Notes under the pieces: model-generated | The model's input: only the letters and a program-made list of their open reading frames with translations | The model's database searches: none | What the model was told of the DNA's origin: nothing | Part shown: positions 21,619 to 57,659 of the stretch, one piece after another | Numbering within the stretch: position 1 is the stretch's first letter | How the letters are laid out: every line of letters begins with the position of its first letter | Assembly (NCBI RefSeq): GCF_963921235.1 | Contig: NC_086108.1 | Span: forward strand, 40,240,001 to 40,304,000 | Source: Mobula hypostoma | Lineage: Eukaryota | Length of the DNA stretch: 64,000 nucleotides | Direction: 5' to 3' | Translations under genes and position numbers: made by a program

Positions 21619-21671
21619 GACGTATGGTGATTAACGTCCCAGCCAGAGCCGATCACCACCTGATTTAAAAC

Positions 21672-27419: not shown

Positions 27420-27720
27420 ATGAGAGTGGGATTATTTGTTCTTGAAAAATAAAGGTTGAAGGGTGACAAAGTAGAGGTCTCTAAAGTTATGACATGGGAG
27501 GCAGAGTGAAGCTTCCTCTTGTGGGAAAGAACAAACCTAAATGCCATCATTGTAAGACAGTTGCAAAAATAAAATGGGGAAATTCGAAATACACATCTTT
27601 ACCCAGAAAGCAATAAGAATGTGGAACATACCACCACAGGGAGTAGTTTGGGCGAGCTGCAGCATTAGCACATTTAAGTTGAATCTAAGAGAGCATAGAT
27701 GAGGGAATAAGACTATTTGT
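27420..27720 (+). mobile_element. Old CR1 3'-end fragment
   Basis: 'RLKGDKVEVSKVM' and 'FTQKAIRMWNIPPQGVV' correspond to CR1 ORF2 C-terminal motifs. Confidence 0.65.
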
Positions 27721-28782
27721 TGATTGACTGAGATGAGGAAAGAGTCTTGGGTAATGGGCCTGCTGGCTTAAACTGCAAATCAATGCAATTTCTTTGCAGT
27801 TACTGTTGGTGTTTTGCATAATCAAGTGATAGAAACTGCCATTGCAAGAAGGCAACTGAGTGTCAAACTTTTATTTCCCAGAAAAAGAACATGCCTTGGC
27901 ATGACACATGGAAGATTTATTTCTCTTAGCAGTGGCAGGTTCATGAAGGAGAAGCCAAGTAATGTTCTCCTTTCCTATTCTGATGCATTGTTACTCTCCT
28001 CAGAGATGGTTATTGTACACGGGTACGTTGGTCGAAAGGCTAATTTTTATTAGTGAATTTTCTGATGCTGAGACTGAACCTAGTCTACCATTGTAGCTAG
28101 GAGGCTGCTCCATGAATTAGTGACCTGTTTTACGTTTTTCTTCATCTTCTTCTGATGGAAATAATGAAAACATGCTTAGTACTTTGGTGAAAGATTAGCC
28201 TCATACTATATGACTGTGGTCTTTATCTGAACCGTCAGATCCTCATTTAAACTGTACTATTGAAAGTCTTGCTTTGACGATCAGGAGCAGGAAACATTTT
28301 TGTTTCCTTTTCTAATCCATTGCAGAGGTCCTATTATGACTTCTGTCCAGGATGAACTAAATTAATGCAGAGATGGAAATTAAACTTCCAACTTTTTTTA
28401 ACTGCAATACAATTGCCCAAAATCAGGTTTGCTGTTATCCTATATAAACATCTTGACATAGATTTGTAACTCTGCTTGCACTGCCCTTTGAGGAAAATAA
28501 TCCCCAAAAGTTATGACTTTCTGAAGGGAAATATTGCTTTATTTATTTCTCAAGTGGATAACCCCAATATGAATTTGCAACACGGATTGTTTCTTAATCA
28601 TCTCAAAGCACAAATTCAATATTAAATAGGCAATTAGAGAACTAGTTAACTAGCACTTTATTGTTGAGAGCAAGGTACTATCCCTTGATGTCATTACTAT
28701 TGAGCAAAGTAGTTTTGGAGGTGACTCTAAGGCTAGAAAATGCTTTCACCCCAAAACTAACCCAAGTCTTAGTGCAAACTTG

Positions 28783-29158
28783 CACACACACACAAAATGT
28801 AGGAGGAACTCAGCAGGCCAGGCAGCATCTATGGAAATGAATAAACAATAGATGTTTCAAGCCACTGGGTCCCCCCCCCCCATCTTTCTTCCCGGACCTC
28901 CTGTCCCATGATCCTCTCGTATCCCTTTTGCCTATCACCTGTCCAGCTCTTGGCTCCATCCCTCCCCCTCCTGTCTTCTCCTATCATTTTGCATCTCCCC
29001 CTTCCCCTCCCACTTTCAAATCCCTTACTCACTCTTCCTTCAGTTAGTCCTGACGAAGGGTCTCGGCCTGAAACGTCGACTGCACCTCTTCCTAGAGATG
29101 CTGCCTGGCCTGCTGCATTCACCAGCAACTTTTATGCGTGTTGCCCTTCATCAGGACC
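28783..29158. mobile_element. Composite Penelope-like pLTR fragments: an older minus copy interrupted by a young plus copy (~28865-29143)
   Basis: The minus copy reads 'gatgtttcaagcca'...'cccttcatcaggacc' on either side of a plus-strand pLTR that is nearly identical to 47417-47530. Confidence 0.85.
29046..29081 (+). ncRNA. Minimal type-I hammerhead ribozyme motif (intact core)
   Basis: AGUC-CUGACGA-AGG(GUCUCGG)CCU-GAAAC-GUC-GACU: stem I AGUC/GACU, core CUGAnGA, stem II AGG/CCU, GAAA, palindromic ACGU stem III. Predicted cleavage is after C29077. Confidence 0.85.
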
Positions 29159-30669
29159 ATGCTTTAGGGTCAGGATTGACAACCACAAGCTTTTGACATG
29201 ACTACTCTGATATACTGTCCTTCCTCCTGTCTGCCTTCTGTTGTTCTGCTGCCTCCATGTTACAGGAAGTTTGGTATTGTGCTCTACCATTTTGTTTTCT
29301 TGCTATGAATTAACTTAAATAGTCTTTGAATAGAAGTTTAGAAAATTTGGAAACAGGAGCAGGCGATTCGCTGTTTTGACCTGCCCCACCATTAGATCCT
29401 TTTAAATAAATGACATCTTTGCTGATTGACATTTGAATTCCACTTCCATGTGTGGAAGTTGCATTGAAAACATTTACACCTATTCATTGTGCTGCTTTTC
29501 ATGGAGAACTGAAGAAAGATCAAAGCAAAACATTAACTATAGGTGTTAATTTTTTGTGGGTGATAAGATAAATTTTTTTTTGATGGAACAGCTGATCACA
29601 ATGAAGGAAGTGGTCTTGAACACATGCATTCAACTCCAATGCTTTTTAAGTTCACCACATATTGTTAACTTATACACTTGTTCTTTAGCTGAAATACAGT
29701 CATATTGTCACTATAGTTGGTTGGCATATGATCTACTTAATGGATTCTGGAAAGGACTGGATTTGTTTTACCCTGTAAATTTTATATGAATTCTTTAGGT
29801 AGCAGCTATGTGTGTTCTCTGTACTCAATGATTCATGCTATGAAGCAACCCATTTGTATCACTGCTATTTCCATCCAATGAATAGATCAACTGAATGTTC
29901 CTATAATAAAGACTGTGTTTTAGTTATTGACCCTACTGGAAAGAACTAGTCTGCTTTTGTCATTCCATTTCCATCACCCAACTAAATTAACACTCTGATC
30001 CCAGGTCCCCCACTCTTCACTATTATTGTAAACGGACCCATTTTGGTTTTGTAGGAACTCTACAGGATGTCAGTGCAGTATTCAGTAACTGGAGTTCTTC
30101 TCTCTACTTACTAGGACTGTTAGGAGTAGGCCCATGCCCATAATTTCAGATAAGGAGGTCTCCTGTGAATTCAGTTGTGTTGGAATCAAACTGACTTCTG
30201 CCATTCTGAAATGAAAGTGAAGGAATGCAGATTAAATCATCTCTTTAAGATGTTTATTTTTAAGATGAGTACAGGGGGAACATGTGTGGGAGGAAATCCC
30301 AAGCCTTGATTACGCTATAGTAAAGGGATTTCATGTAAATAATAAGATGAATTAATGAATCTTCTGATGGATTGCTTGCTAATATGACAGGACTCTTTGC
30401 ACACTTCGTCCACCTCAGCTATCTGTTGTTGAGACCATCGTGTTATTTATCATTATTCCTCAGTAATCAGAAAATCCACTCAAATAATCACCTGCAGCAA
30501 CTGTGTCATTTATTCATATTAGAGTCAAACTAATAATGAAACATAGCAGTAAATCATTCAACCCTTTTTTTAGTCTATGCCATTTCTCAGACTATTCCAA
30601 TCCATCCCATACTTCATAACTTATTCTCTCCCACATGCCCAGCATTCCTGATCCCCCTGCCACCTGCCT

Positions 30670-30840
30670 GTCCACTTACCAACCAGCATTTTGTTGGAAT
30701 ATGGGAAGAAACCAAAGCACCCAGGAAAACCTATGTGGTCACAGAAAGGTTTTGCCAGCTCCACACGTAAAGAATCCCATTAATCCTGGGTCGCTGGCAT
30801 GGCAGCAGCAGGACCAACTATTGTACCACTGTGCCACTCT
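30670..30840 (-). mobile_element. V-SINE (HE1-like) remnant
   Basis: 'tttgttggaatatgggaagaaaccaaagcacccaggaaaacc' is the reverse complement of the V-domain. Confidence 0.6.
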
Positions 30841-32334
30841 GTAATAAGTATTGCAGCTAACATTTCTCCAGAGTTACTCTAAGTGTATTAAGTTGATTTG
30901 TAATGGTGGGAATGACTGCTGGAGAAAGAAAACTGACAATATTGCCACTCATTTTTTGTGATGTTCTAATTATAACTGAATAGATTTTGCCGGTCATGTG
31001 AGAGCTTAATAATGATGCAAAATTGTCACGCTGTTATCCAGGCAAATAGAGCCAAATTTCAATTGTAAGATCGCAGACAGTAATCCAAGGAATGATTAGT
31101 TACCATGTTGATGGATATATTCTGTCAAGGATACTGGGGCAGCTCATAGATATTCTATGGATTATGAAGCTCCAGTAATCCAAGATCCCACAATAAATGA
31201 GAGAAATATTTGTTTAGTACATGTGCTCTTACCAATTACATACCCTTGTGTTAGGAACCATAGATGATTCCATTAAACCTTTAATTTGACTATACTTCTG
31301 AAGTTTATGAGGGATTTATTAAAATATCTTGGTTGGTCTATGAAAATAGAGAATGTGGTTTGAGCTTTTCAAGCATTTCTAAAACTCAGAACATTAGATA
31401 TTAATTTGAATGAAAAGGGAAAAATCAGGCAAGTAGAGGGAAACTTTCCATTTATCAAGGAGCCAGTGAGGCAGTGCATACAAATTAAGATCTAGTTTTT
31501 CAGGAGTCAAGCTTTCTAAATGCAATTGTGGTAGATCTTTGGAGCATCCTTCCATAAATGATAATTAATGTTATTTGAATTGTTAATTTTAAAACAAAGA
31601 TTGATGGATTTAAATTATATATTGATGGATAAAAGGCATTAAGAGGTACTTTACATGGATTGATGAATGGAATGGGTCTCAGATCATATAGAATGTAGAA
31701 CAGCCCAGATGAGCTACTCTTGTGCCTGTATTTCTATTTACTCAGGCTTGCAGATCTCTGTGGATAGTGAGAATATTATGTAAAGCCCATCACTTGTTCC
31801 AGATTTGAATATTTTTTTCTGACTTGACATATTAATTCTCTTCCTTTCTGACCTATGGATATTTCCAGATATTTTTTCATTGTTTTCATCTTGTTATGTG
31901 ACTTGTTGTCTGATGTTTTTGATAATGCTCCTATGAAACACTGTGGCTGTTATCCATTGATAAAGACATTTAAATAAATGTTACTAGAATACTGCATTTT
32001 CCACTGCTTCTATTAATCTAAGGAATTTATTAAGATTAATAGATATTGTATGTTGGTGAAGTTTTTCCCTAATCCATTTAAAAAATTGAATTACAGCCGA
32101 ATATGGTGCTAATCTGTTACTTTAGATAAGATGACACGATAAATCTAGCACATTGAAACAAAACAAAATGGATGCCCAGATCTACAACAAAAATAATCAA
32201 CTGTACAAATCCAGGGATCTCAGATGCTGAACCTCAAAAGAAATCTAAAATGAAAACAAAAACAAGAACACCCATAAACTTCTAACTCAAATGTCCAATA
32301 TCACTTCATCGTGTGGTGTCTGCTTGTGGCCGCA

Positions 32335-32722
32335 TTAGTGAAACTATCGTTTCTGAGCCAGAAGATTGGACTGAGGATTAGATGCAGAGTCTTGAGTATC
32401 TGACTTCAATGCTGGAGCTTCAGGGAGTGTTGCCCTGCTAAAGGTGCGGCCTTTCAGTAGAGATATTAAACCAAGTTAATGTTTGCCCCCTCCTGTGAGC
32501 ATGATAGATCCTATTTCAGGATTTTGAAGATAGAATAATCATCCCTGGTATCCCTTCAACAACATCACAAAAAGAAAGATTGTTTGGTGATTACTATTTG
32601 TTGTTTGCTCTGAGCAAAATGACTGTTGGGTTTCGTACATTACCACTGGGGCTTTTGTTTAAAATTGCTTCAAGGGCTGGGTCAATAGAAGGTGCTTTGA
32701 AAATACACGGGATTATTTCTTT
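32335..32722 (+). mobile_element. Ancient Deu-domain SINE (SacSINE1-like)
   Basis: Head 'tctgagccagaagattgg', body 'cagggagtgttgccctgctaaaggtgcggcctttcag..attaaacc' and 'atcccttcaacaacatcac', tail 'aaggtgctttgaaaatacac..ttcttt'. Recognised from memory of the family consensus. Confidence 0.6.
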
Positions 32723-34624
32723 ATAGGATCAAATGTAGCTAGATTTTGTTTCATATATAGTGTGAAAAATTAAAAATTGCATTTACTTTTCATCACTAAC
32801 TGAAATAAGAAGGTGAGATGTCTTCCAGAATCATTGTAGCTAGCATTTCCTGATCTAATAATGATGAAGGAATGATCATTCATTTTCATTTTGAATAATA
32901 AATAACATTGGAAATGGTAGTCTTTTTATAAGCCTGCTGCCTCTTGTGGTTTGAGTTCATAAGAAATAGTAGTGCCGGAAGCTTTTCTAAGCTAAATAAC
33001 AGGTGGAACTATAAACTTTCAACTAACAGCAGTGTCTGTTAAAAGAATGTATCAGAAGTCATAATACATGTTATATTCCGTTCTTAAAGGTGTAGCTGAA
33101 TTTGTGTACTCCACTGTTTCTCCTGGAACATGTAATAAATCATCAAAACATCAACTATTTACATTAAAGTACAATTATAAACTATAAATTTACTCATTCA
33201 TTTGGTCTTTTGTTGAATGAACTTTTCACTGCAAACTGGACTTGACAGCTCAGAAGTATGCAATCCAGGAATCTAGGGACTGATGTTTCCACAGGATCAC
33301 TTCTCCAGACAGGCTTTATACTTAACAGGTCCCACCTACTGTTGTGAATTTCTTACTTTCATACAATTGTCTTTGTAATGATTAAATAATAGGATTGTAT
33401 GTTCTTGACTGCCATTTTCAAGATCTCACCTGTATACTACTTATGAAATCTTACACAAGTTAAATAAGTCTAGTCAACCAATGGAGCAATTACTGTTAAA
33501 CATTGTGAGGCCCTTTATGGCTCTGCTTTTATACTATATTGCTCTCTGACTTCCAGTCTGACACTTTGTAGATAGGAAATGTTTCATCTTCTCTGCTTTC
33601 TCTTTTGTAATCACAGGGTTCTGTCCCCCGGCTCTCTCTTTCTAGATTATCCCCAGGACTTTTAACTCTTCCTGGTTAGTTTCAGACTATTTTACCACAT
33701 GGTGGGTTGAGGTGGCATTACTGTGTTGAGCTCAGGATGCTTGGAGCCTTTGAAATATGGCCACACTGCAATGCAGTTCTCTCTGAAACAACCCAACTCA
33801 CCCTACATTTGTTTCGGGCACCTCCTGCAATTCTGTAAACAACCAAAGTCATTTGGGCACTTGAATAACTCACCAGAACTTGTGCAGTTCCATTTTCTCC
33901 ACCGGTATTGTTGGTGCCAAATTCAACTGATACCATCTTGGGTTGCAACTTTGTTTTTCTCCAGTTGTGTGTACTCCAGTAACATCCCAGCTATTGGTCT
34001 GAAACTCTTGTGAATTGACTTCTATGTTGCTTAGACTGGTTACACACTCCTTCTCTGAAGTAGTTCCCCTTGGGGTTTGTGAGTGATCCTACTCTACCAA
34101 GGCAATCCGGGAAGGGTTGTTTTATATTAGCCCTGGATTCAGAACATCTTTCCTTCTGAGGAACATCACCTGGTCTGACCCTCTAGGTTGCTTGTATTTC
34201 TCTTTTCAATCTGACGGGCTCCTCTGCAGGCATTTTTTTTTCCCAGTGACAACTTCTTCCCTAGCATCTTGCTTCCCTAGAAGAGCAATGTCTGCTTCAC
34301 TTGCCGTGAAGTAGGCCCATGCCTTGCCCGTTCTGCTTGACACCCAAACAGACAGTCGTACCAAACCATGGTACTTGAAGAATGCCCTAGGGGATCCTGT
34401 TGAACATTGCCATTTGCATATTCTCATTGTCTGATTCCACCACAGGAGAACTGTTCAATGGTTTTGTACCTATATGTCTGAGGCAAATGGTAATGGCCAT
34501 GTATGCTGGAAGTTTCTGTCTTAGGAGCTTTCTTTAAACTCTAGTACTGCAGATTGCCGACATAAAAGGCTATCTCCAAAACTACTATTGAAAGGCAATA
34601 AATCTCCACTGGACAGTAATAGCT

Positions 34625-35040
34625 AGGTATACTTCACTTAGAGCAGCAATGAAGATCCTCCATCTCTGTCTGTCATGATATTCAGGGCTTCTTTCATTGT
34701 GCCTGTAGTTTCCTCTCGGGTTTTACTACCATCAGCCATGCAAGTCCTGGGTGAAGACTCAGGAATGACATAATACATAGATGTAGAAGGATTCTTTATT
34801 GTTGTTTCCACACCAGGTTTATCTGACAGGTCAGAGTTGTTAGCCCTGAGCTGAACCCCAGAAACTGAAAGACTGGTGAACCACTGTTAGCCTGGCAACT
34901 ACCCTTTGAAATGTTTGACATGGGTGACCACACCAAGAACCAAAGCATAAGGCCTGACTCTTTCCAGCGCAGTTCTCTGAGTCATTGAGGCACGCAGGCC
35001 TCCAAACCACAACAAGATTGTGGTCTTCCTGGAAGGAAAT
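34625..35040 (-). mobile_element. Non-autonomous bipartite RTE-type retroposon (5' UTR joined to 3' end)
   Basis: The 3' end translates 'DRDGGSS / WRIFIAAL' on the minus strand, like the RTE C-terminal DR..WR..AL motif. 34850-35030 ('gttgttagccctgagctgaacccc', 'gtcattgaggcacgcaggcctccaaaccacaacaag') resembles RTE 5' UTRs. No RT lies between the two parts. Confidence 0.5.
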
Positions 35041-35944
35041 CCAGGTAGAACAGGTATCAAATGTCAAACTATATAGTTCACACAGTTCTTAAAGATGCAC
35101 ATATAAACTTGGGGATTTAATGTTGCTGAAATTGTGTTTATGTATATCTCAGATGATATACACAACAGACTTTATGCATCTATAGTGAAGGAGTTTTGAG
35201 AATATGTTTCACCCAAGTAGGCTGTTTTCCCCTGGGCAGTAGTGAAAAGGTTGTGGAATTTTTGTTTGTTATTGAAAAAAATCAACCGGAAGCTGGCATA
35301 CTTGGCTCCAAGTACCTGCCAATTGAGCATAAAGTGAATGTTCATGGGATTGCCTTGATACCATGAACATGCATAAATCCATGTTTCTCTCTGTTTATTG
35401 ACCACAGACAACATTGGAAAATGTCATTGTAGCCACACCATTTCCATTGTCCAATAATTTGGCTTCGAAGAGATATCTTTTTTAAACACAGGATATTTGT
35501 CACCCATGGAATTGCAGAGAAATGATCACTCTGCAAAATCTCGTGTGTACATTCAATCACAGAAAATGGAAGGTATAGTCCACTCTGGAAATGGAGGCTA
35601 CACGTATTCCCAGGCAATGAATGGTAAATGTGATCTGTGGCCCTGACTTGAAGATAGCAAGGAAAGGCAAAAACCATGAAAATCAAGACTGTTTGGTGGA
35701 GGAAATTTGTTCAAGGGTAGGTGCGGGTATAGCATTACAGAAAATTTAATGAAATACAAAGGGAATTTTACCTTGTTAAAAAGTAACTTGTAATTCATCA
35801 AAATTCCCAGTGATATTAACGGAAGCAAAAATATATTAGGCTGTTTGTTCTGCCACTTTCTTCAACTAAGTAGTGAAGAAGAATAATTTCTCCTAAAGAT
35901 CTTTATATGATAGTGGATATAAAAATGAAAAGATTTAAGTTCGA

Positions 35945-36300
35945 ATTTCAAATTGAATTTATTATCAAAGTACATGTGTAAATACTACTATATAGATTCC
36001 TTTTGTGCAGGTATTTACCGGGAAAAAGTAATGCAATAGACAAATAAAAATGACAAATTATGCAAGTAAAAGTAACATGGAGAGCATGAGTTGTAAAGGG
36101 ACCTTGCAAGTGAGTCTGTGAAGCTTGGAATTGGGTTAGAATAATGCTGATTGAATTTATCCACCCCATTTCAGAGACCTGAAGGCTGTAGGGTAATAAC
36201 TGTTCCTGAAACTGGAACCTGGGGCTTCTGAACCTGCTGTCCGATGGTAGTAGTGAGAAGAGAATGTGGCCTGGATGATGGGGGTCTTTGATGATGGAAC
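35945..36300 (-). mobile_element. Rex-type LINE 3' end
   Basis: 'SIIKDPHHPGHILFSLLPS' and a (tttgaa)-type tail at 35945-35965. Confidence 0.75.
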
Positions 36301-36799
36301 ATTGACGTGCCTCAGAAAACATTACAGCCAATATGAGACGTTTGTGGCATAATCATCAGTGCATTATAGGGAATATGGCAGTTAATCCATTTCCAGCAGG
36401 CACTCACAAACAGCAGCAAACTGAGTAGAAAGTAATTTCAGCACTTCTCTCTGTCCAGCATTTTAATTCTTTCTCAGGTTTCGAGCTTCTGCATTTAAAA
36501 AAATATCAATGTCAGCTGTAATGCTAGAAGAAATCTGCTCAAAATTTAGAAGTTGCTTCCTCAGAGACTTTTGTATAAATTTGAGCCCATAGTGGTTTAT
36601 TGCTGCTAAAAGTAGAATTCCACTTTAATCAGTATGGATATTGCATTTTGCTCATAATTTACTTTTAATTTGCTGTGATAAAATCCATTGTGGCCCTGTA
36701 ATAATCCCAAATGAGATCAAATCAGAATGGGTCCGGCAGCTCACAATTAGGTACCCATTATGCCTATGGAATCAGCTGCTGCAGAATTCGGTTACCTCA

Positions 36800-39570
36800 T
36801 GGCCCAAAATGTTGCCTCACTCTATTTTGACTATGAAGCCAGAGGTTCAATGAAGAGTGCAGAAGGGACCTGGGAGCAGCATCAGCACACCTAAAAATAA
36901 AATGCTAGCTGGTGAAGGTACAGCACCAGGCTCTGTGCATAAATCACATGCAATAGACAGAACGACTTCATCGCACAACCAATGACGGACCAAAGCTCTG
37001 CAGTTCCATCACATCTAGTCATAAGTGGTACTGGACTTATAAACAAGTGGGTTTAATGGGAAATGGGTGGTCAAGGATTTCTCACCAAAAATTAAAAAAA
37101 AACTCAGTTCTACTTAATTACCATGGAATCAGTTAATTGTCAAATATCAGCAAAGCGATTGAAGGTGTCATCAACATACCAATTCAGCAAAACTTACTCA
37201 CTAATGGTCTGTCTAATTAATGTCCTTTTTGGATTTTATCAGCACCCCGTCTCATCGCTTCATCTTGGAACATGGAGGAAAGGGCAAAACTCAAGAGGTG
37301 AAGTGAGAGTGACCTCCTTGTTATTGATGTTGCATTTCAATGTGTGATATCAAGGAATCCCTGGTAAAATTGAAGAGATAATCACTCCTACTTTAAATCA
37401 GACAAAGGAAGATGTCTGTGGTCATTGGAGATATTTAATTCCACCACAGAATGTCACACTGTGAGTGTTGTAGGGCAGTAACCTTGACTCCAGCATCCTG
37501 AACTGCTTCGTCCTTTAGCACATGGTCATACGTGGGGATATTCACTGATGTTTGTATGATGTTCAATTCTGACATGGAGAATAGAATTGACAGATGGCTG
37601 CAACACATCATTGAACTCACATTTTTCTGAAAAAAAATCTTAATAATAAGGAAGCAAAACAGATGTGACTTGTGAGCATTGTGATGCTTGCAGGAAAATG
37701 TTACATCAATGACTTGAAACAGCCATCTGCCAATTCCAATGTCATGCTATAGAGTTATAAATGTATTGATGCAGCAAGATCAAAGACAATGTTAGGCATA
37801 AGCTGCTTAATGACAAAGAACATTAACATCAGAAGGATGCCAGGTATGAAGCACCTCCAAAAAGAAGGTGCTGAACTATCTGCCATGGATAATTAATAGC
37901 ATTACCATCATTAGTTCTTGCATTTGACTTCCTGGTTAGAATCACCATTGATCAAAAATCTCAAAAAAAAAACTGACCATATAAATACTGCGAACGCAAG
38001 ATCAAGTTACAGACTGGGAATCTTCAAGGTCAAGTTAAAGCTCAAGTTTATTTTCATCTGACTACATATGTACAACCAAACGAAACAGCGTTCCTTTGGA
38101 CCATGGTGCACCCACAATACATAGAGCATACACAGCACATAAAACAAAAGATTACTACAAATAAGTGAGTAAAATAGAATTCAAAGTACATGTGAAGTGT
38201 GCAGCACAGGTAAACTGCAAACTGCTCACTGTCCAAGTGACAAAACTGTGGTGGTGGCAGGGTATCCGTTAGTCTCATTGCGTGAGGGAAGAAGCTGTTA
38301 CCCAGTCTGGCAGTCCCAGTCCTGATGCTCCTGTACGACCTCTCTGGTAGTGGGTTAAAAAAATTGTGGGATGGGTGGTAGGGATTCTCAATGATGCTTC
38401 GGGCCCTTCATCTGTGACACTAACCACTCCGGGTAAATGTCACAAATGGAGGGGAGGGAGACCCTGGCGACTCTCTCAGCGGATTTTACTATCCACGATG
38501 GGGCATTCTGGTCTGATGCCTTGCAGCTTCTGTACCACACAATGATGCAGCCATACTGGACCCTCTTGATGGAACTCCTGTACAAAGTTTTTAGAATGGG
38601 GGTAGGGGAGACTGAGGCCTTGCACACATATATCTCTTCAGAAATCATAGACGCTGCTGTGCCGCCTTGGTTAGTAAAGGGTGTTGTGAATTCTGGTTAG
38701 AATGTCCATTATGAGCACACAAGGGACTTGGTGCTCTTCACTCTCTCCACAGCAGAGCCACTGATGTGCAATGCAGAGTGGTTGACCTGTGCCATCCTGA
38801 AGTCACAATCATCTCTTTTGTCTTGTGCGTGTTCAGATTCAGGTTGTTGTTCTCGTGCCATTTGACAAACCTCTCTACCTCCTCTTTGCTGACTCATTAT
38901 TGTTGCCGATGAAGCCGGCCACTAGTATCATCATCAGCGAACTCGATGATGCGGTTTGAGCTGAATCTGGCCGTGCAGTTGTGAGCCAGCAGAGTGAACA
39001 GCCATGGAGCCCACCAGTGCTCAGCTTGATGGAGCTTGAGATATTGCTGCCAGCTCAGATTTACTGAGGTCTTTCTGACAAGAAGTCCAAGTTCCAGTTA
39101 CAGAGACAGGTGTTGAGTCCCAGCGAGTACAGTTTATCCACCAGCCGGTGAGAGATGATTGTGTTAAAAGCCGATCTTGTGCAAGTGACAATCACAAGCC
39201 AAGTGCGAGGTAGAATACTCTGTACTTGTACCAGCCCAGCAAACATCTGGAAACATTTTTCTCCAGGGTGGCTGTAATGCCCACTATGTACTTTATGCAC
39301 TGCAGTTACTCATCTAGGCTACTCTAACAACTCCCAAACCCCATGACAACTATTATCACACACTACCACCAGCACCTTTCCCTCCAAATTGCAGTTTTGC
39401 CTTGGAAGTATACTTTCAGTCCTTTTTTATTGCTGGATCTAACTCCTGGAGTTCCTGAGGGAACACCTTCACCTGAAGGACCACAGTGGTTCGAGGTGAG
39501 TCATCTTCACCTTTTGAAGGACATTTATGGCTAGGCAATAAATTTTGACTTTGCCAATGATGTCTGAAAA
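36800..39570 (+). mobile_element. Highly degraded CR1/L2-clade LINE, interrupted by a Rex copy
   Basis: Remnant RT-region and 3'-end similarity ('caccttttgaaggacatttatggctaggcaataaattttgactttgccaatgatg'). A related minus-strand end lies at ~25300-25380. Confidence 0.45.
38025..39178 (-). mobile_element. Rex/Babar-type LINE, RT and 3' end
   Basis: '[28 protein letters not shown]', FADD (tcatcagcgaa at ~38932), 'VERVKSTK' and 'LYRSSIK..GCIIVWY'; the tail is at 38025-38055. Confidence 0.85.
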
Positions 39571-40984
39571 TTGGGGGGAAAAAAAAGTCCTGCACAAACC
39601 TTTAGCATGAACTGCTGTTTTATCAAATGTTCTTAGACATTCATTTCCCATCATATTTAGATAACTTAAAAGTGTGTATCATTTCAGGGGTTTGGAACAG
39701 GACTAATGCTTTTAAATAAAAAGTATCTTTTTTGTTCTCAAAGCTCATAAGCAGTCTTTACAGAGAATTAAGACCACACTGCCTTTGAGGTTCACCTTGT
39801 TAGCTTGTATTTTCCTTTGGTCTCGGGAATGCAAAGCAAAGTTGGAAACTTCCATAATAAAGGAGCCTGTCCAAAGGAGTAAATGCTGGCCTTGGCAATA
39901 TTTGAACCACATTTTCGTAAAGGAGAGCCTTTTGCTTGTAAGTCACGTGTGCCATGCTGTTTTATTATTAAGATCTTAGCAGGAAAATGTGACTTCATTG
40001 ACTTGATGCAACCTGCCAGTTCCAACCATCTTTAAATATTTGTACAAGGCCTGACTGGTCTGGAGGTGCAGTTTTTGATAGTGACAGAACATTCTTGGAA
40101 AAATAAATTGCCCAGTGAAAGTGGGATGCTTGTTGGCTTATCGCGGAAAGGCAACTACTGGTGTAAGCGTCAGGTTGTGGCTTGGACAATCCGACCATTT
40201 TGGCAGAAGAAGAGTGCAACAGTTGTGTCAACACTGGGTAGTCAGGGCACAGGATGAAAGGGACGCAGCAAATAATATGCCTTTGTGGATAAGTTGCAAA
40301 AGTTATCGATGAGCCAGTGTTGGCAAGTTCTTCACAGCATACTTGACTGCAAAATACAAGAAAGCACTTCAGATCATTGCATGCAGTCTTTCATTAATGC
40401 TTGAGGTGGTTTCAGTTGCGCTTTCAATAATTAATTATCATGGAAACAATTACTTTGTTTTTCCATTTTCAGGCAGAGGTTAACCACTGGTAATCATTTG
40501 CACCCTCATAAGAACAATGGCAGACTTAACAGGTGGAAATTTATTGATACTTCCTGTGATTGTGAAGGTCGTTGATCTGGAAAGTGCTCATTGATGTATG
40601 TACTGTATTAGTCAAAAAGGCAATCATAACTCTGGCTTTTCTAATTTCTAACTTTCAACATCTGCTTTTCCAACAGCGTACATTTGATTTCTGGTAATTT
40701 TCTTTTTGATTAACACATAGCCACTCTGAGTCCTATAACAGATGAACGTGGAAATCCTATGTTTTAGTTTAAACTCTTTCGTCAGAGACAATTTGATTTT
40801 AGTTCTTGATTAGACATGGAGACCACAATCTTCTAGCCAGCTAATCAGATTTGCGTTATCACAACTGCAATATCGCTGACTCTAATTTAAGTTGTGGCAA
40901 ATTTCAGTCAAAACAGATCAGGGGTGGAGAAGGAGCTTAAGCTGGCAGATATTGTGGGATGGAAAGAGTGACTGCACCATCATC

Positions 40985-41300
40985 CCAATGGCACATGGGT
41001 ATCAAAATCATACAGGACGGAAATAGGTCCTTTGGCCCACCAATATATATTGACAATCAAACAACCATTTGCACTAATCACATTTCATTCTCCTTGAACT
41101 CCTTTCAATCATCTCCAGATCCTTATCGTGATCCTAGGGCCTATTTATACTGGCTAATTAACCTGCCAACTTGAACGTGGGAGAAAATGAGAGTATCCTG
41201 AAGAGGCCTCCAGGGAGAATGTGAAAATTCCACTTGGATCATGCCAGAGGACAGCATTGATCCTGGGTCACCAGGAATGTGAGGTGGCAGATTTACTAGC
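40985..41300 (-). mobile_element. V-SINE/HE1-like remnant
   Basis: 'ggctaattaacctgccaac..gtgggagaaaatgagagtatcctgaagagg' and 'gcattgatcctgggtcaccaggaatgtgaggtggcag'. Confidence 0.5.
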
Positions 41301-43559
41301 TAGTGTGAGAGGTGTAGAAGTTTTCTTGAACTTTGTTCTTATTTGAATTTATTTGGATAGGAACCTGTGCTAAATAAGCAAAGGCAATGTGTCTATCTAC
41401 TGTAGAGACAGGAATATCAGTGAATCTTTTGTGAGACCATGTTGTGAGCAAGTATTTAGATTGGAAAGTGGAACACCCGAGGGGAAGTTGGAGATTACAA
41501 TCACGAGGTCCATTTTTGGAGTACAGTCATATTTTTATGGACTCTTTCTCCATTATTTTGTTTAACTCTCAGGTCTTCGAGATCCCCCGAAGCTGTGAAA
41601 GTTTGGATTTTACATGACACTGATACATCGAGGTCCTTAAGTGAGACAGCACCCTGATTCAAGAACTTTTTTTTTATGGAAGTCTGAGCTGTTGTAAAGT
41701 CAAGTCTAATAAACTTTGGGCAATGGTCAGATTTATGTTTCAAACATTTTCATCTATCCATTATGTTGTTCGTCAGGGTACAGGTAGAAAATAGGCCTGG
41801 TAGAGCGAGAGTTCATGCTTTTATGCAATCTTTAACAATGAAAGCACATGCCACTACGCTTTATGGTTTATGAAATACAATTACAATGGAAATTTAGGAA
41901 TTTCTTTACCTGTGTGGTTAACAACTCAATTCCTAAAAGAAGTTAGTCTTTTGACAAGCATATTAATTGGTCAGTCTCCATTTCCTACTCCAAAATTATT
42001 TGAGGAGGTGCACTGAAAACATTAGAAATTGGCATGGCATATAGGTTTTAAAACAGCCGCAATATTGTGTTCAATTTCTACTCAGAATGGAGAAGACAAA
42101 TACATCTTCTTGAGTTTTGATCCAAGGATGAAATATAAAGGAAACAAAATGAAGGACAAGGGATTATGTCCCTTCGAGATTGTTTCATTGTTAAATAAGA
42201 TCAGAACTGGTCAACTGGCTTTATTTACTTCATTGTCCAATCTCTATCTTCTGAGATTCTCAAGAAAATTTTGATCTCTATCCTGAATAGACTGAATGAC
42301 TAAGCATCCAGAGATCTTTATAGTATAGAATTCCAAGTCCTTTCCACCCGGTCAGGGATACAACATACCTATTTTACTCTTTTTACTCATTGGCATCTTT
42401 GCAAGTTTGTATTTAGCTGCCTTTTTATATCAATACATTTTGCAGCCTATCAAGTGTTGCTTTAGGTAGCCAGAAAATGAAAGAAATTTAAAATTACTTC
42501 CAAAGCTATAAATGCCTTTTTACTCTGGTCTCCCCATTCAAAGATGCTGAGTGGGTGGCTCATTTCCAGCCTTTGAATATTGTTCCTGTTCAGCTGGTCT
42601 CCAGCCCAGATGTAAAGAGTCCCTATACCCAAATTTACCCTCATACTTCCTCTTCCTCTGAAGAGGAAGATGATCTCTGTTAAGTCCTTTGCCACAGTAC
42701 TGTGCAAAGATTAAATCAGTGCTATCATATAGCTCTGGTATCTCTCTGAGACCAATCACATTTATTCTCATGTTGAATAGATGTCCTGCCACTTTGTTGT
42801 GAAGGGTTTATCGAATGAAAAAAATTATACTGCATGAAACAAATCAAACTATTATGATTTCTACATCTTCTGATGTCCAACCCCACTAATGTGACAACAA
42901 TACCTTCAGCTCAGCGAGCGTCTTTTCCCCTTTTGGAGCTTTCCTATTGCTCTTTTATAGCATAAATTTGAATATAAGGTCAGTGGAATAATAATTTCTT
43001 TTATCCGCTCTCCATTTGGCTATAAAATTATGTTGCCACTGTAATAACCATTATTTCTGATTTTGCTTGAACACATTAATGCTCTTGGTTATAAAGGCTG
43101 AAAGACATACAGTGTAAAACCATGCCCTTCAACCCATAAAATCTATGAAAAACATCAACCACCCTTTCTATACCAATCTGACATTAATCTCATTTTTTTT
43201 ATTCTCGTCACATTTTTTCAACAACTCCTCCAGATTGTAGTTAAAATGACTAAATTATAAAGACAGACTTCATAAACATGCTTCAAGTTCTCAGTTCTCT
43301 TCGGTTTTGAAGGTTGAATAGTGGTCACGACGTTGCCTTATTGGGCAGATTATGTCAGCAAGCATTTGAGTGATTAATGAATGAATGAATGCCAGCATGG
43401 GAGGATTGGATGAGTTCAAATTTAGGGGAACTGGAAAATGGGACACTGCCACATGGAAATAGATTTGTGAGTTAGTTCAAAAACCACACAGCCTTGGTCT
43501 TTAGTTACTTCTGAGATTTATAGTCCATCTCGGGCAGGGATTGTAAACTTAACCTCCAG

Positions 43560-43775
43560 AACTGGTGTCATGGTAGTGCCATTACAGCGCCAACAATCGA
43601 GGTGCAATTCCCAAAACTGTCTGGGGAGTTTGCACGTTCTCGCTGTGACCCCGTGGGTTTTCTCTATGTGCTCCGGTTTCCTCCCATGTTCCAAAGATGT
43701 ACGAGTTAGTAAGTTAATTGGGCATGTTGGACCAGAAGGCCTGGTTCTGTATTGAGTCTTTAAATAGAAAAAAAA
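43560..43775 (+). mobile_element. V-SINE (HE1-like)
   Basis: 'ggagtttgcacgttctcgctgtgaccccgtgggttttctctatgtgctccggtttcctcccatgttccaaagatgtac', followed by an A-rich tail. Confidence 0.75.
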
Positions 43776-45129
43776 ATCAGAAAGTTGCTTATAAGATCAT
43801 TATCTTCTAGTTCTCCAAGGATCTCACTCCATCCTCTAGCCGTGCTGCCTATTCTCATCCTCCGGAATTCTGCTCCTCCCTGCTCTCTCTGCTGCATCAC
43901 CCAACCCCTGTTCCTTTGTAGCCCTGCTCTTGGTCCATCTTATTTTCTTTCAAACCCCAATAATCCCTTTTTACTTCTAATCCTCTTCCCTTCCCTCTCC
44001 AAAAATCCCTTTGCTGCCATCTTGATGCATGTGGCTCAAATGTAAGCTTTTTCATTAACTAGAGTGGATATTGCATTTTCCAGTCCTCAATGTTGACATT
44101 AATTGCAGTATCTCTGCCACTACCCTGAATACAGTAAGCAAATTCATGGCTCAGTAATGACAGAACATGGGAATTTCCTTCTCTGCATGGCTCATGTCCT
44201 TCCTGTCGTAACCAGCAGAAGAGTACTCCTCAGAATCCTGGCACAACTCTTTCCTGGCGGAATCAGTTGGATGGAATGAGGTTGTAATGTTGGCAACTGT
44301 GCGGCTGACCACTCTACTGAGGGCTACTTTTAAGCAGTTTCAAGTTCCATTCCCTACACCTCCTTTCTAAACTAATTTCCACAAAAATTAAAAAAAGAAT
44401 AGACAAGCTTACCTTTTCTTTATTAAAGCTAATAAGCAATTGTGTTCAATTTGGATATCCTGTTGTGTCAGGAGTAGCGGAGGCAGGCATTGGAAGTTGT
44501 GCCAATGAGTGGGTGTCCTAGTATTACTTCCACTGTGTTGATGTTGTTTTATCCCAATAAGGCCTTCAATGTAATACTTGTAGATTGGGTCCCAGTAGGA
44601 CTCGAATGCAGATCCTTCAATTAAAGGACACTCCAGGCAGGGCATTTGATATACTCTGGTGCCAGTTACGTAAGAGAGGATGGAGACTAAATAGCCTTTA
44701 GGCTGTTCCCTCACCTCAGTGATGACTGTTGGGTGTTCACTTGTTGGAGACTTTATATTCCTTGCTGATAGGAAGGGGAACCCATGAAAACGTGGTAGGA
44801 AGTCGACAAAGTGGTGAGCAGTAGGAATACGAGTTTGGTTTTCCCTCAGATATGAATTGGTGCCACAAGGGGGTTAAATATCAGGGAAGGAGAACACAAG
44901 GACATTTAGACACACGGCCTGGTGCCTGCATTACTACCAGCTAGCTGGATCTGCCCTCTTAAATCTAGCATGTTGCCTTTTACATTTGCATACTTTGCAG
45001 ATGCACACCCATCCTCCTGGCTATTACAGTGCCCCACATTCCACCTGTCCGGCCACCACTGATGCTTGACCTCTATTATAGAATGATTTATGGTCACACT
45101 GAGCAAACGGTCTCTGCCCGTTCACCACA

Positions 45130-45430
45130 GTGCCACTGTAGCATAGTGGTTAGCGTGACTGTTGTACAACTCGGGGAGTTCCAGAGTCTGTGGTTCAATT
45201 CTGGCGCCATTCTGTAAGGAGTCTGTCTGCGTTCTTCCCGTGGAATGTGTGGGTCCTCCCACCGTCTAAAGACATGCCTGTTAGGTTAACTGGTCATTGT
45301 AAATTGTCCATGTGATTAGGTTAGGGTTAATCATGGTTGTGAAGTTGCTGGGACAGTGTAGCTTGAAAGACTGGAAGGACCTTTCTCCATGCTGTATCGG
45401 TAAATAAATAAATCAATCAATCAATCAATC
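45130..45430 (+). mobile_element. tRNA-derived V-SINE (HE1-like) with (AAAT)(AATC)n tail
   Basis: A-box 'tagcatagtgg', B-box 'ggttcaattct', V-domain 'gttaggttaactggtcattgtaaattgtcc' and a microsatellite tail at 45402-45430. Confidence 0.78.
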
Positions 45431-46947
45431 ATGCTGTAAACTTTGGTACCTTTCTTCACTGTCCACTGCACCATGTACTCTTACTTTCACAGGTGTCCTC
45501 TTTTCCCTGTTGCAAGAGGATATGGCTGACAGAGGCGAGACAGAGAAATGGAGACAACTCTCTAGTAATCTCAACCCGTATCTGAGAAGGGGTCAGCCTT
45601 GACCACCTGAGAATGTGGAGCTGGTGACAGCAACATTATCTGAGCACTCGTTCAAGCTGACAAAGTCAGCTGAAAGTAAAAAAAATCTTATGTGAATTAT
45701 GATAACCTTAAACCGTCTTGCTTTGGTAGTTTGAATTCAGGTCTTTAACCTTACATGTGCCATCAAGAGTGCACTCAGATCATCCAGAGGTCAGATGTGT
45801 CCTGTCCCTCAGACCCCCAAGCACTCATTCATTCCCACTGACCTCCTCGGTGTCAAAGTGGAAAGAATTGGTCTCCCTAAAGATCATGGCAGAACCCTGG
45901 AATCGGCTAAGTGTGGGGACTGTTGTCATGTTTACAGTGGTGGTCATTGGAGCTTGTTCCACAAAGCTGCAGATATCTGCCACCACCCAGCGTCTTTGGT
46001 CATTGGTGTTAAGCTGTGTGACAGAAGCTCCACCCTTCCTGTAGATTCTTCACACGGTAGCACCCAGCTGCGAGCTGGATCTGTGTATTGGATCCACGCG
46101 CTTCTGTAATTGTTGATGCTCCTGAGGCCCTGACAATTGTTCATGGTCTTAGAGTTATACAGCAGGGAAACAGGCCATTTGGCCCATCATGCCCATGCCA
46201 GAAGTGTCTGTTGCTTATACTATGATCTACTGGTGTCAAAATGTACACAGCAATTCAGTGAACAAGTGGTAGCACTAAAGTTTTAGAAGGTAATGATAAA
46301 CTCTACCAACTTTGTTCTGAAACTAGTGAAACAAGCAACCAACACTGTGCAGAAAGTTAGACTCAGTTGTTGCTGTGGGGCTGCTGTGTTTATTCCCAAA
46401 TTCCTGGGTCAATTTATTACGTTCTCCAGAACTGTTGTGCTCTGGCCCAACTTTCATTGGTGAGATGCAAGAAGAATGGAAGCCCACGAGTGCTTAGTTA
46501 AGGTTGACCTACACCAATGAGCTTGGGGTCAGCAAGCTGCTTCTCCCAAAGGTTTTCTGTACACAGGCATAAGATAACTATGGAAGTTTGGCCATGAGTT
46601 TTCAGTGCATTTAACGCCTCCCCAGCAATTCCTGAATGTGAAAGCTGCCTACTTTCTGTGATATGAAGGTTTTTAGAATCAGTTTTACTTGTATGCAGAT
46701 TCCATTGTGGCCATCTAACAGTGGTTCGCCTTAGACACCTGTGCTTATTCACACAGAGGTTACCATTGTTAGATCAATTTTAATTAATGTGGGAAGGGCC
46801 CATTTGTTCTTGGGTCTTCATTTATACATAAAAACTTTAGTGCTGACCAAACAACTTAATAGATGAGAACTCAACAAATCCAGAGATCTGCCAATTTTAT
46901 TCCTGCTTTGGAGCTCAATCATCTGTGCTCAGAGATTATCGTCCTTC

Positions 46948-47052
46948 CAACACACACAAAGTGCTGGAGGAACTCAGCAGGCCAGGCAGCATCTAGGGAA
47001 AAAAAGCACAGTCGTCGTTTCGGGCCGAAACCCTTCGGCAGGACTGGAGAAA
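46948..47052 (-). mobile_element. Penelope-like pLTR fragment with a mutated hammerhead (47010-47045)
   Basis: The minus strand reads AGUC-CUGCCGA-AGGGUUUCGGCCC-GAAAC-GAC-GACU, with two core substitutions. Confidence 0.8.
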
Positions 47053-47416
47053 ATCAGCAGATGTTCTCTTGCTTATCTTTCTTCCAAATGTCGTTCAAAA
47101 AGCCGATCTGGTAGTTAAATTTAGATCAGGCAGCAGAAGCGACACTTACTCAGTGTTGGTCAGCACTTTAACAAAATCCTTTGCACTGCGTTCAGATGTA
47201 AATGGGTGTGAGCAAGTATGAGGCACTACAACACGTAAAATTTTCACTCTTTTTCCCTTCCCCCTCACACACACAAACTTATGCACAAGAAAACACCCAT
47301 ACATGTGTGAAGAGACACATACAGGCGCACATACATACAGATGGGAAAGGTGACTTCGACCACATTGAATGTAAAATTGGCGTTACTTCATTATAAAAAC
47401 TACTTTCATTTCCACT

Positions 47417-47560
47417 CTTCCTTCAGTTAGTCCTGACGAAGGGTCTCGGCCTGAAACGTCGACTGCGCCTCTTCCTATAGATGCTGCCTGGCCTGCTGCG
47501 TTCACCAGCAACTTTGATGTATGTTGCTTGAATTTCCAGCATCTGCAGAATTCCTGTTGT
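47417..47560 (+). mobile_element. 144-bp Penelope-like pLTR insertion with a 13-bp target-site duplication
   Basis: Flanked by identical tttcatttccact at 47404-47416 and 47561-47573; contains only the hammerhead and the 3' terminus. Confidence 0.9.
47429..47464 (+). ncRNA. Minimal type-I hammerhead ribozyme motif (intact core)
   Basis: The 36 nt are identical to 29046-29081; predicted cleavage is after C47460. Confidence 0.85.
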
Positions 47561-49444
47561 TTTCATTTCCACTTTTGACTTGGAATATTAATTTAATGCA
47601 GAGAGCTGGTATTTTACATAGAAAGACACAGAATTTTATGGTTAAAGGAAAAAACACTTCTGCTCAGAAAGTCTATTCTGATACTTATGCTCCTAAGCAG
47701 CACCCCACCTTATTTCTGCACACTTTATCAACCCTACCCTTCTATTTTTTATCTCCGGACATTGTCATCAAATGTCTCTTTTCAATACATCTGTGACAGT
47801 GAACTCCACATCCTTACCACCCTGTGCACATTGTTTCTGTGCTCTCCTGCTGATGGGGATTTGACAAGCCACCTAAAGTTCCAAATATAGGGTTTTAGAC
47901 ACATGCTGATTCTACCTTTACCATGATGGGAAACGTTTGATGATTTAATATTATCACTGAAGGCTAAATTATTATGTTTTAGTTTGGGGCCCAAGCAGAC
48001 TTGAAACATACTCTTCATTTCCAGGCTGCGTTAAGTGAATTTTCACCGGATGTGGGTGTTTTTTTTTATCTGAGCTCTACAGTATGCTGAAATTTGCAAC
48101 AACACACAGTGCACTTCTTAGCATGGGTGGTTTAGCAGGTCCACCCCCATGACGAGTTTCTACCAAAGCCACAGATCTGCATGTATTTCCTGTTGGAGGT
48201 AAGTGGGTCATGCTTGTCAATGTCGACTGCAGAAAGAGCTTCTATATTTCTGAGAGGTTTGAAAAAAGAACAGTGAGTTCTTACTTAGTGAACTAACTCA
48301 CTTTTTACAGTGCACTAAAGGCTGAAAGCAAAACCTCAAACTGATTTTCAAACTAGCCCCAAGAAAAAAAGACATATCATTCAGATTTATGTAATGTTTT
48401 CTCAAACTGGGATCAACAGGACTGATACTCCTTTTTTTCAATTTTATGTACCTTTCTCATTGGTGTTTAAAATCAATTATACAGATTCCAATGTTGGCAT
48501 TAGTAATTCACACAAAGATGGACTTGCTGTGTTTCCTGGTGGAGAAAAGCCACTCTACATGGTGATGCTTGCCTCACACACTTGATCACATCAAACATCT
48601 TGCTTGTTCTTTCGCAACTGGAGCAGCTAGTCACTGTTAGAACTGTGTGCTGATTCAAGAAGTAGTACTTTTGGTGATCTCTTTGGAAAATTAAACTTTG
48701 ATTTCTTTGTTCTTGCCCCATCTCCAACCACCCTCTCCTTTTCAAAATCACGGAATCTGATGCTGTCTCCCAGATTTCTGGCCCTTTTTCCCATGATGCT
48801 TCATTTCAAAGCTTCACACCAGGCTTTTGTACCTCCTGCAGGCCTTACAAAGTCAGAAGAAACAGTCTGGGTGTCTCCTCTGTGCTATCATTCCTCATGA
48901 TGATCAGCCTAACTGCAACATTTGTTACCATTTTCTTGTAGTTTTTTTATCTGATATTCAGTTGGGTGGAAATAACTTACCTGTGAAATTCTTACCTTTT
49001 GAAGTGCAACCAATTAGTTGCCAAATTTCACTTCTCATTAACACGTTGCTTCTGGATTCCTCCAGGATCTATTTGTGATTCCAACTAATCTTGATCTATA
49101 TGCTGCTTGTCAGTGACCTGTTTCACATTCAAGCTGACAACACTCAGCTCTGCCTTGCCTGACACACAAGCATGCTGTTCATGCTGCTTGGTTGGCCCAG
49201 AGTTGGTGTAGCAGAAACTGGGTCCATCAGTATAAAGAGAAGATGGAAGCCCATTGGTTGCACTGCACAGGACCCTTGCTTTACCCCTCCCTGCCCCTTC
49301 ATCCCTGGTTCTAGACAGTCAGCTGGACCACGGGTAGAGAGGAAGGCCCAAAGCTCAAATTGTCAAAAATGCTTCCTAATAGTTGAATGACATGTAAATA
49401 ATTAAGGTTGGACTCATCATAGATGGTGAACATGAAATGTTGCA

Positions 49445-49876
49445 TTCGGAAAACAGCATCCATCATCAGAGATCCACACCACCCGGGCCATGCTCTTTTC
49501 TTGCTGTTGCCATCGGGATAGAAGGTACAAGAGCCTCAGGACTGACACCACCAGGTTCGAGAACAGTTATTACCCCTCAACCATCAGACTCTTGAACAAC
49601 AGGGGGTAGCTACACTCACTTGTCCATCCATTGAGATGTTCCCACAATCAATAATCTCACTTTAAAGACTCTCGATCTTATTATTTAATGTTTTTGTTAT
49701 TTATTGCTATTTATTTGCATTTGCAGAGGTTGTTGTCTTCTGCATTTGATCTTACATTGATTCTGTTATAGTTACCACTCCATAGATTTGCTGAGTATTC
49801 CCGCAGGAAAATGAATCTCAGGGTTGTATATGGTGACAAATATGTATTCTAATAATAAAATTTACTTTGAACTTTG
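49445..49876 (+). mobile_element. Rex-type LINE 3' end
   Basis: 'ASIIRDPHHPGHALFLLLPSG' and 'TTRFENSYYPSTIRLLN'; tail 'taataataaaatttactttgaactttg'. Confidence 0.82.
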
Positions 49877-50101
49877 CACCAGCACTGACAAGCTACCATG
49901 ATAGAAGGCAAGTAGTTAGCCAGCAGCTCCACCATCCTGGATGCACTCTGTAAACAACAACCTGAAGCAGCCGGACAAAAACAGAAGTGTTGATGGTCTG
50001 TGGTTTGAGGGTGATGGGGTTTGGATACTATGTGGTTAGGGGTATGAGAGTGGGGAGAATGTCAGAATCAGAAATTCATGATGCTGAAAGGGATATTATA
50101 G

Positions 50102-50412
50102 TATAGGCATCCGTTAGTCTCAAGAGACCATGGATTTGCGCCTTGGAAGGTTTCCAGGGCGCAGGCCTGGGCAAGGTTGTATGGAAGACCGGCAGTTGCC
50201 CATGCTGCAAGTCTCCCCTCTCCACACCACCAATGTTGTCCAAGGGAGGGGCATCAGGACCCATACAGCTTGGCACCGGTGTCGTCGCAGAGCAATGTGT
50301 GGTTAAGTGCCTTGCTCAAGGACGTGCACGCTGCCTCAGCCAAGGCTCAAACTAGCGACCTTCAAATCACAAGACGAACGCCTTAACCACTTGGCCACGC
50401 GCCAACACATGT
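50102..50412 (-). mobile_element. Young tRNA-derived SINE with a CORE-like middle and an RTE-like tail
   Basis: Minus strand: A-box TGGCCAAGTGG, B-box GTTTGAGCC, 'gtccttgagcaaggcacttaacc', 3' end 'aatccatggtctcttgagactaacggatgcc'. TSD aagggatatta(t/c)ag at 50088-50101 / 50413-50426. Confidence 0.82.
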
Positions 50413-50653
50413 AAGGGATATTACAGATCTTAATAAAGGAGGAATGAGTTGTCTGGACAACAGGAGTGAGGACCGGGTGTCAGGAGGGGAATCAAGGATT
50501 ATGGGGAGAAACAGGAAAGTGGGCCGGATCAGCCGCAGCCTTATTGAATAGTTGAGCAGGCAGGATGGGTCAGGTGCTGAGTGACCTGATCATTTCTACT
50601 CACATTGACGTATTCGTCTTTATTTTCCAGTCTACACAGTTGGCACCATTGAG

Positions 50654-50792
50654 CAACACACACAAAAAATGCTGGTGAACGCAGCAGGCCAGGCAGCATA
50701 CCTCTTCCTATAGATGCTGCCTGGCCTGCTGCATTCACCAGCACTTTTTTGTGTGTGTTGCTTGAATTTCCAACATCTGCAGATTTCCTCGT
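50654..50792. mobile_element. Hairpin micro-insertion of Penelope-like pLTR ends
   Basis: Inverted arms of ~48 nt (50652-50699 and 50714-50762); 15-bp TSD gttggcacca(t/c)tgag at 50639-50653 / 50793-50807. Confidence 0.88.
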
Positions 50793-57640: not shown

Positions 57641-57659
57641 CAACCTTTGTGTTATTTAA

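Follow-up and report, generated by a model that had tools for sequence, protein, structure and literature searches.

Two minimal hammerhead motifs in PTPRC intron 2 of the ray Mobula hypostoma are very probably inert passengers from a young Penelope-like element

Introduction

Minimal hammerhead ribozymes (min-HHRs) were described in 2014 in the pseudo long terminal repeats (pLTRs) of metazoan Penelope-like elements (PLEs), with thousands of solo copies per genome (PMC4209133). Here we report on a 64,000-nt stretch of the genome of the ray Mobula hypostoma (contig NC_086108.1, positions 40,240,001 to 40,304,000, forward strand; hereafter the window), in which one and the same 36-mer of this kind occurs twice, 18,383 nt apart, in the sense orientation within intron 2 of PTPRC, the CD45 gene. 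A first-pass annotation of the window had proposed that the two copies form a dimer pair able to cut the intron. Our analysis leads us to consider them, with considerable confidence, as inert passengers: the pLTR hammerheads of a young PLE, carried by two truncated insertions and predicted to be folded shut, which likely do not cut the pre-mRNA.

In the passages of Cervera and De la Pena (2014) used here, the min-HHR monomer is inactive and the dimer has low activity, while the G10.1-C11.1 pair is reported as highly conserved (PMC4209133). The ray motif shares with those ribozymes the type-I architecture, a palindrome in place of helix III, a short helix I and an unpaired base before helix II; in both cases the hammerhead lies in both pLTRs around a ~3-kb frame with reverse transcriptase (RT) and GIY-YIG regions, most copies are solo and truncated, and nearby copies occur on opposite strands. 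It differs in that its copies are far more numerous and more alike (32,886 exact ones, against ~4,000 in the coelacanth and ~9,000 in Xenopus, called highly variable in that account), in having a helix II of 3-4 pairs and a G-U at 10.1-11.1, and in its cartilaginous-fish host.

The Poseidon element PAc of Anolis carolinensis carries a hammerhead that, according to the portion of the report cited here, cuts only with the element's protein, is dispensable for insertion in vitro, and has no RNA-seq ends at its cleavage site (PMC11167929). The ray element has the same succession of pLTR, open reading frame (ORF) and pLTR, with the hammerhead near the start of the frame, and the optional 30-40 nt tail of PAc finds a parallel in the 3' end of copy 2, which is longer than that of copy 1.

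Retrozymes are reported in one chondrichthyan, and 42-44% of the Xenopus copies lie in introns, in the section of the preprint referred to here (bioRxiv 10.64898/2026.07.22.740005). These non-LTR retrozymes resemble the present case in that their type-I hammerheads derive from Penelope pLTRs and that their monomers are evenly spread, many of them in introns, but they are arranged head-to-tail with a hammerhead in each unit, whereas we observe separate fragments 18.4 kb apart. A further point of comparison is the CPEB3 ribozyme, which is of the hepatitis delta virus type. It too occupies the sense strand of a vertebrate intron 2, with several kb left up to the following exon; in the part of the source cited it is active as a monomer, with a half-life of 2-3 min, and affects splicing, and slow intronic ribozymes are quoted as being without effect on splicing (PMC10919898). 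The ray motifs, in contrast, are part of a young high-copy transposon, presumably dimer- or protein-dependent, and give no sign of activity. Our search of the literature on hammerheads in cartilaginous fish found no account of this family, which is weak evidence of absence.

Results

The motif pair

The 36-mer matches letter for letter at 29046 and 47429 on the plus strand (Table 1), as the first-pass annotation had stated. It is a type-I hammerhead without helix III, made up of stem I (AGUC/GACU), the core CUGACGA, one unpaired A, a stem II of 3-4 pairs, GAAA, the ACGU palindrome and the GUC site. Both copies satisfy the core consensus C3-U4-G5-A6-N7-G8-A9, G12-A13-A14, A15.1-U16.1 and H17, and in both the loopless palindromic ACGU (the 15.1-16.1 segment) replaces helix III. 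The core, stem I, ACGU and GUC triplet of the earlier description hold, but its 3-bp stem II needs correcting: folding gives the AGG/CCU register p ~0.02, against p ~0.95 for G-U, G-C, G-C, U-G after the unpaired A, and so favours an extra unpaired nucleotide after position 9, just ahead of helix II, as in Penelope pLTR min-HHRs. The G10.1-C11.1 closing pair, a feature outside our descriptor, is absent, both copies having G-U there.

Across a sample of 1,864,000 bases, a strict minimal-hammerhead descriptor matched 29 times, while two block-shuffled replicates gave no match, meaning that the motif is not chance sequence. The Rfam covariance scan of the window returned six matches at E up to 5 with no hammerhead family among them, as would be expected for motifs lacking helix III. 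An ungapped scan allowing up to 12 mismatches found nine family copies in the window, five on the plus strand (two intact) and four on the minus strand (none intact). All four minus-strand copies have changed cores, as had been noted, but so do three of the five plus-strand copies, and the contrast in intact cores (2/5 vs 0/4) is not significant (Fisher p = 0.44), which led us to reject it as a signal.

The parent element and its abundance

Near the end of the window lies an almost full-length, frameshifted PLE (Table 1), both hammerheads of which are core-mutated (57721, 61157). Its RT piece finds frames of 967-1043 codons among the 150 best RT matches, and two of the five long-ORF elements that were fetched (L192 and L194) carry the exact 36-mer on both sides of a 1039-1043-codon frame, 3.5 kb apart; in the other three the motif lies on the 3' side of the frame, once with a mismatch. 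The intact frames match RVT_1 (E 5e-5) and GIY-YIG (E 1e-3), both below the Pfam cut-offs. The named proteins closest to them are of ray and shark origin, with 91-93% for Mobula hypostoma, and their homologues carry PF00078 and, in some cases, PF01541. Neither the RT piece nor an intact frame had a match among solved structures, and a metagenome scan for related elements, intended for a test of stem covariation, gave 46 pattern matches, none of them a confirmed relative. Judged by this layout the parent is a Penelope-like element, in agreement with the initial assignment of the motif, which belongs to its young and very abundant pLTR.

Long inverted second copies often lie beside intact elements (L192:639-2408, L195:6061-8499, L196:6426-8102), and in L196 two exact motifs face each other 585 nt apart. 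The window also holds a fold-back Penelope tail without a hammerhead at 50652-50799, where an inverted 48-nt arm is joined to a sense tail and gives a spurious weak match to RRE in Rfam.

Genome-wide, the exact 36-mer occurs 16,386 times on the forward and 16,500 times on the reverse strand, or once per 106 kb (the reversed-pattern control gave 0), and a relaxed pattern requiring an intact core occurs 73,489 times. Two exact copies on one strand of a 64-kb window have P = 0.074, which corresponds to ~4,000 such windows, while two sense copies in a 48.8-kb intron have P = 0.023 for the exact motif and 0.095 for the relaxed pattern. Given the 32,886 exact copies, the pair is no more than would be expected by chance.

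Two separate insertions

Copies 1 and 2 differ in their 5' end, in their 3' end and at 6 of 115 shared bases. Copy 1 ends 63 nt past the motif and copy 2 ends 98 nt past it, so that it still includes the tail and the beginning of the open frame. A 13-nt duplication of the flank (47404-47416, 47561-47573) overlaps the ends of copy 2, and copy 1 sits in stem II of the hammerhead of an older antisense copy, which it splits with a loss of ~3-4 nt. From these sequence boundaries, the copies are separate insertions; a single duplication event yielding both was rejected, since ends and flanks differ. Copy 1 may have landed inside an older hammerhead of the opposite strand (28786-29158) by chance, or because the element targets its own repeat.

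The identity of the two motifs cannot be taken as a sign of selection either, as the chance that none of the six differences hits the 36-mer is P = 0.10. A retrozyme array was also discarded, the locus consisting of two unequal fragments with unrelated DNA between them and no head-to-tail units. Rather than the single conserved locus of a domesticated intronic ribozyme, we find young insertions of a motif with tens of thousands of exact copies.

Predicted folding in the transcript

The folding, tether and penalty figures given here come from rough models without proteins. Reaching the hammerhead fold costs the bare 36-mer +4.4 kcal/mol. For copy 1 the cost is +6.5 kcal/mol just after synthesis and +14 kcal/mol with both flanks, the copy being predicted to be closed by an internal hairpin and by the older antisense copy in which it landed. 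For copy 2 it reaches +36 to +40 kcal/mol in context: a separate antisense copy ~380 nt upstream (46948-47045) is transcribed first, and folding predicts pairs between it and 33 of the motif's 36 bases. The pre-mRNA is likely uncut because each copy is predicted to be folded shut. The models also pair the 15 bases preceding the motif with the CUGACGAAGGG core, both in the two copies (window 29031-29060 and 47414-47443) and in intact elements (L194:5507-5540).

In the double-hammerhead form, the sole link between the two copies is the 4-bp ACGU helix, worth -1.7 to -3.1 kcal/mol. With an ideal-chain effective concentration of 0.1-0.3 micromolar at 18.4 kb, the paired fraction is 4e-6 to 4e-5, and 4e-3 if -6 kcal/mol is granted; on these models the two copies probably do not cut as a dimer.

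Strand distribution in other genes

The orientation of family copies was compared over 1.6 Mb, in eight blocks inside five large genes whose strand was set by clustered CUB exons, and which we take to be three mutually paralogous CSMD-like genes, one cubilin-like and one tolloid-like gene. PTPRC was excluded since it had been chosen for the pair. Among the 181 family copies with at most 11 mismatches, the intact ones are evenly split, with 16 in sense and 16 in antisense orientation (n = 32 from five genes; 95% interval for the fraction in sense 0.32-0.68), the exact ones number 8 and 7, and the broken ones 80 and 69; strict-descriptor matches number 12 sense and 14 antisense. Exact copies occur at one per 107 kb in these genes, versus one per 106 kb genome-wide, and two of the eight blocks hold pairs of intact sense copies, at spacings of 7.6 and 15.4 kb. 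Strong depletion of intact sense copies is thus not seen in 1.6 Mb of five other genes.

Conservation and decay of the core

From 246 tail-anchored copies, 175 reach C3, of which 72 are young, 99 are older and 4 were left out. The two groups agree on the commonest letter at 34 of the 36 motif positions (the exceptions are N7 and 11.1), at 11 of 15 spacer positions behind the motif and at 15 of 16 positions upstream; the upstream flank is as well conserved as the motif, a comparison that is biased by local alignment. At position 11.1 the 72 young copies have 45 T vs 24 C, that is, a G-U vs a G-C pair. The commonest young variant therefore carries G-U (window 29069, 47452) where other subfamilies have G10.1-C11.1, a change that removes a CpG and may weaken catalysis. 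Deviations in young copies amount to 30/645 at non-CpG core positions, 24/213 at CpG core positions and 6/216 in the loop. Since the core deviates no less than the loop, it does not seem to be protected after insertion, and the letters suggest that it is maintained in source elements and unprotected thereafter.

The host gene

The signal-peptide exon reported earlier is real, with both motifs sense in the intron that follows it. The non-coding exon 1 (21528) is joined to exon 2 (21619) across a 90-nt GT..AG intron in contigs of three of the four public runs (X1, X2 and X3), and one such contig, of 6,195 nt, extends past the exon. The RNA nature of all eight RNA-labelled runs is a guess, with no RNA holder on record. 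At the hammerhead region the contigs are swamped by other family copies, and the presence of both insertions in the sampled animals is not shown by them. The next exon, of 30 nt and phase 1 and bordered by an acceptor and a donor site, lies at L006:6573-6602 (window-equivalent 70573). Depth in the bin 6347-6680 of L006 is 5.29 in X1 and 16.9 in X3, which equals the depth of the exon-1/2 contig (55.3 and 176.7, respectively) times 32/334; the match makes it very likely that the same contigs cover the 30-nt exon, from which we infer the splice join of exon 2 to it.

Tandem phosphatase exons lie 100-140 kb past the window, and one of them matches CD45 (1ygr) at E 8e-28, the next-best phosphatase reaching only E 4e-18. 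Because this exon matches CD45 far better than other phosphatases, the host gene is, by homology, PTPRC/CD45. Collagen, a guess from the signal peptide, was rejected: the motif scan found no collagen exons, and the phosphatase exons settle the matter. Pfam, run on 43 ORFs of the window, named neither the host gene nor the broken Penelope frames. Human PTPRC presumably has a similar layout, which was not documented by our search for published lengths of CD45 intron 2. Further downstream, in L007-L009 (window-equivalent ~75400-97400), short plus-strand Ser/Thr-rich segments that resemble one another follow acceptor-like sites and recur with nearby Penelope fold-backs (83147, 87312, 91077, 93076); they are possibly duplicated mucin-like CD45 exons.

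Other repeats

Two long interspersed element (LINE) fragments, at 10-1559 and 17289-18851, are 83% alike, lie in opposite orientation and have RT and endonuclease Pfam matches; we assume them to be CR1-like. Remnants of Tc1-type transposases occur at 2052-2372 and 63518-63835. An inverted-repeat hairpin at 51995-52061 reaches 38 bits against a microRNA model whose cut-off is 80. It closes off a repeat that recurs at 63347-63866 and is likely the end of a DNA transposon.

Table 1. Features of the PTPRC locus and of the Penelope-like copies in the window
Feature	Position	Strand	Remarks
PTPRC/CD45 non-coding exon 1	21444..21528	+	start as far as contigs reach
PTPRC/CD45 exon 2	21619..21744	+	ATG 21672, 24-residue signal peptide, phase-1 donor 21745
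PTPRC/CD45 intron 2	21745..64000, on to window-equivalent 70572	+	~48.8 kb
Older-subfamily Penelope tail, 3' part (hammerhead 3' half and tail)	28786..28864	-	antisense
Copy 1, 280-nt 5'-truncated young pLTR fragment	28865..29144	+	95.7% identical to intact-element pLTR
Minimal hammerhead motif 1	29046..29081	+	predicted cut 29077/29078
Older antisense copy, 5' half of hammerhead	29145..29158	-	flank sequence, split off by copy-1 insertion
Separate antisense family copy	46948..47045	-	83% complementarity with copy 2; its hammerhead (47010-47045) has a mutated core
Copy 2, 150-nt 5'-truncated pLTR fragment with tail	47413..47562	+	99.3% identical to intact-element pLTR
Minimal hammerhead motif 2	47429..47464	+	predicted cut 47460/47461
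Near full-length frameshifted Penelope-like element	57658..61492	-	pLTR, broken RT and GIY-YIG-like frames, pLTR

Discussion

The most convincing account of the two motifs is that both came with the pLTR of a young PLE and now lie inactive in the intron. The motif would be kept in source elements as serving the element's own RNA, in which the 3.5-kb ORF has a pLTR copy on either side and folding would be assisted by the element's protein. Presumably, reverse transcription begins near the tail and often ends early, leaving mostly short tails that carry the motif. The sameness of the two copies would then reflect their youth, and after insertion their cores would decay like the adjacent DNA.

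Several observations weigh against this account. The hairpin formed with the upstream bases is predicted in intact elements too, at a cost of +6.1 to +8.2 kcal/mol, so that folding alone cannot prove copy 1 inert. Long hairpins can be remodelled by RNA-binding proteins, and such a built-in hairpin could, if the model holds, explain why hammerheads of this kind need the element's protein. The public runs consist of contigs, which carry no RNA ends or strand information. The strand test excludes only strong depletion, given its small number of intact copies, its five genes and the opposite-strand neighbours found within 1 kb of 13 of 34 intact copies (PTPRC included); selection, moreover, may have had too little time to remove young insertions. 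A single block, C2a, has 25 sense and 9 antisense copies overall (p = 0.009), with intact copies at 1/1, and within PTPRC itself the intact ones among 13 copies are 2 sense and 0 antisense.

The alternative that survives best, though we consider it unlikely, supposes occasional cutting of solo copies, once protein supplied by intact elements has bound and refolded them, while the host gene would be affected little or not at all. Protein assistance has a precedent in the anole element, in the part of that study cited (PMC11167929). Long open frames (967-1043 codons) exist among the best RT matches, RNA-like contigs of the family are abundant in the public runs, subject to the same guess about their nature, and copy 2 keeps the tail and the frame start. 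The copies end so soon after the motif, however, that they may lack the site for protein binding, 172 nt of the ORF having been needed in the anole element (PMC11167929, as cited), and intact intronic copies show no strand bias. A bolder extension, which we find very improbable, would have the protein activate solo hammerheads in trans, making the ~70,000 core-intact copies latent cut sites in nascent RNA throughout the genome, with CD45 intron 2 cut wherever the retroelement is active.

Equally little credence can be given to the proposal that the two copies join through their ACGU palindromes within a single nascent PTPRC RNA and cleave intron 2 while it is being transcribed, thereby lowering or tuning CD45 output. 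Both cores are indeed intact, sense and in the same intron, such motifs do cleave as dimers at a low level (PMC4209133, in the passages cited), and the ~23 kb from copy 2 to the next exon would take several minutes to transcribe, scaling from the 9.9 kb in 2-3 min given for Cpeb3 in the part of the source used (PMC10919898). The pair is nevertheless what copy number predicts, and closer intact sense pairs exist in other genes; both copies are predicted to be sequestered, copy 2 by an antisense copy made just before it; the 4-bp helix leaves a negligible paired fraction at this distance; the variant has G-U where the literature has a conserved G10.1-C11.1; and intact sense copies are not depleted elsewhere. 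The dimer pair of the first-pass annotation accordingly finds no support here.

The idea that the young-subfamily motif is no longer a ribozyme, and is kept only within a signal, in RNA or DNA, that reverse transcription or insertion relies on, draws on the G-U of the commonest young variant, on anole hammerhead mutants without effect on insertion in vitro (PMC11167929, in the portion cited) and on the predicted masking of the core by an upstream hairpin in intact elements, but is hardly tenable, as all core positions keep their commonest letter in both subfamilies while N7 and 4 of 15 spacer positions have changed, which is the pattern expected under selection on catalysis in source elements.

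The two motifs are fragments of a known kind of transposon ribozyme and, as found, would have little significance of their own. Their study yields two by-products, the identity of the host gene as CD45 and a first small test in which introns show no strong loss of intact sense copies, a result suggesting that solo minimal hammerheads do no harm. If cleavage did occur, the tens of thousands of identical copies with intact cores in this ray genome would offer exceptionally good material for finding out whether minimal hammerheads are ever active on RNA inside living cells, a matter that the 2014 and 2024 papers did not settle.

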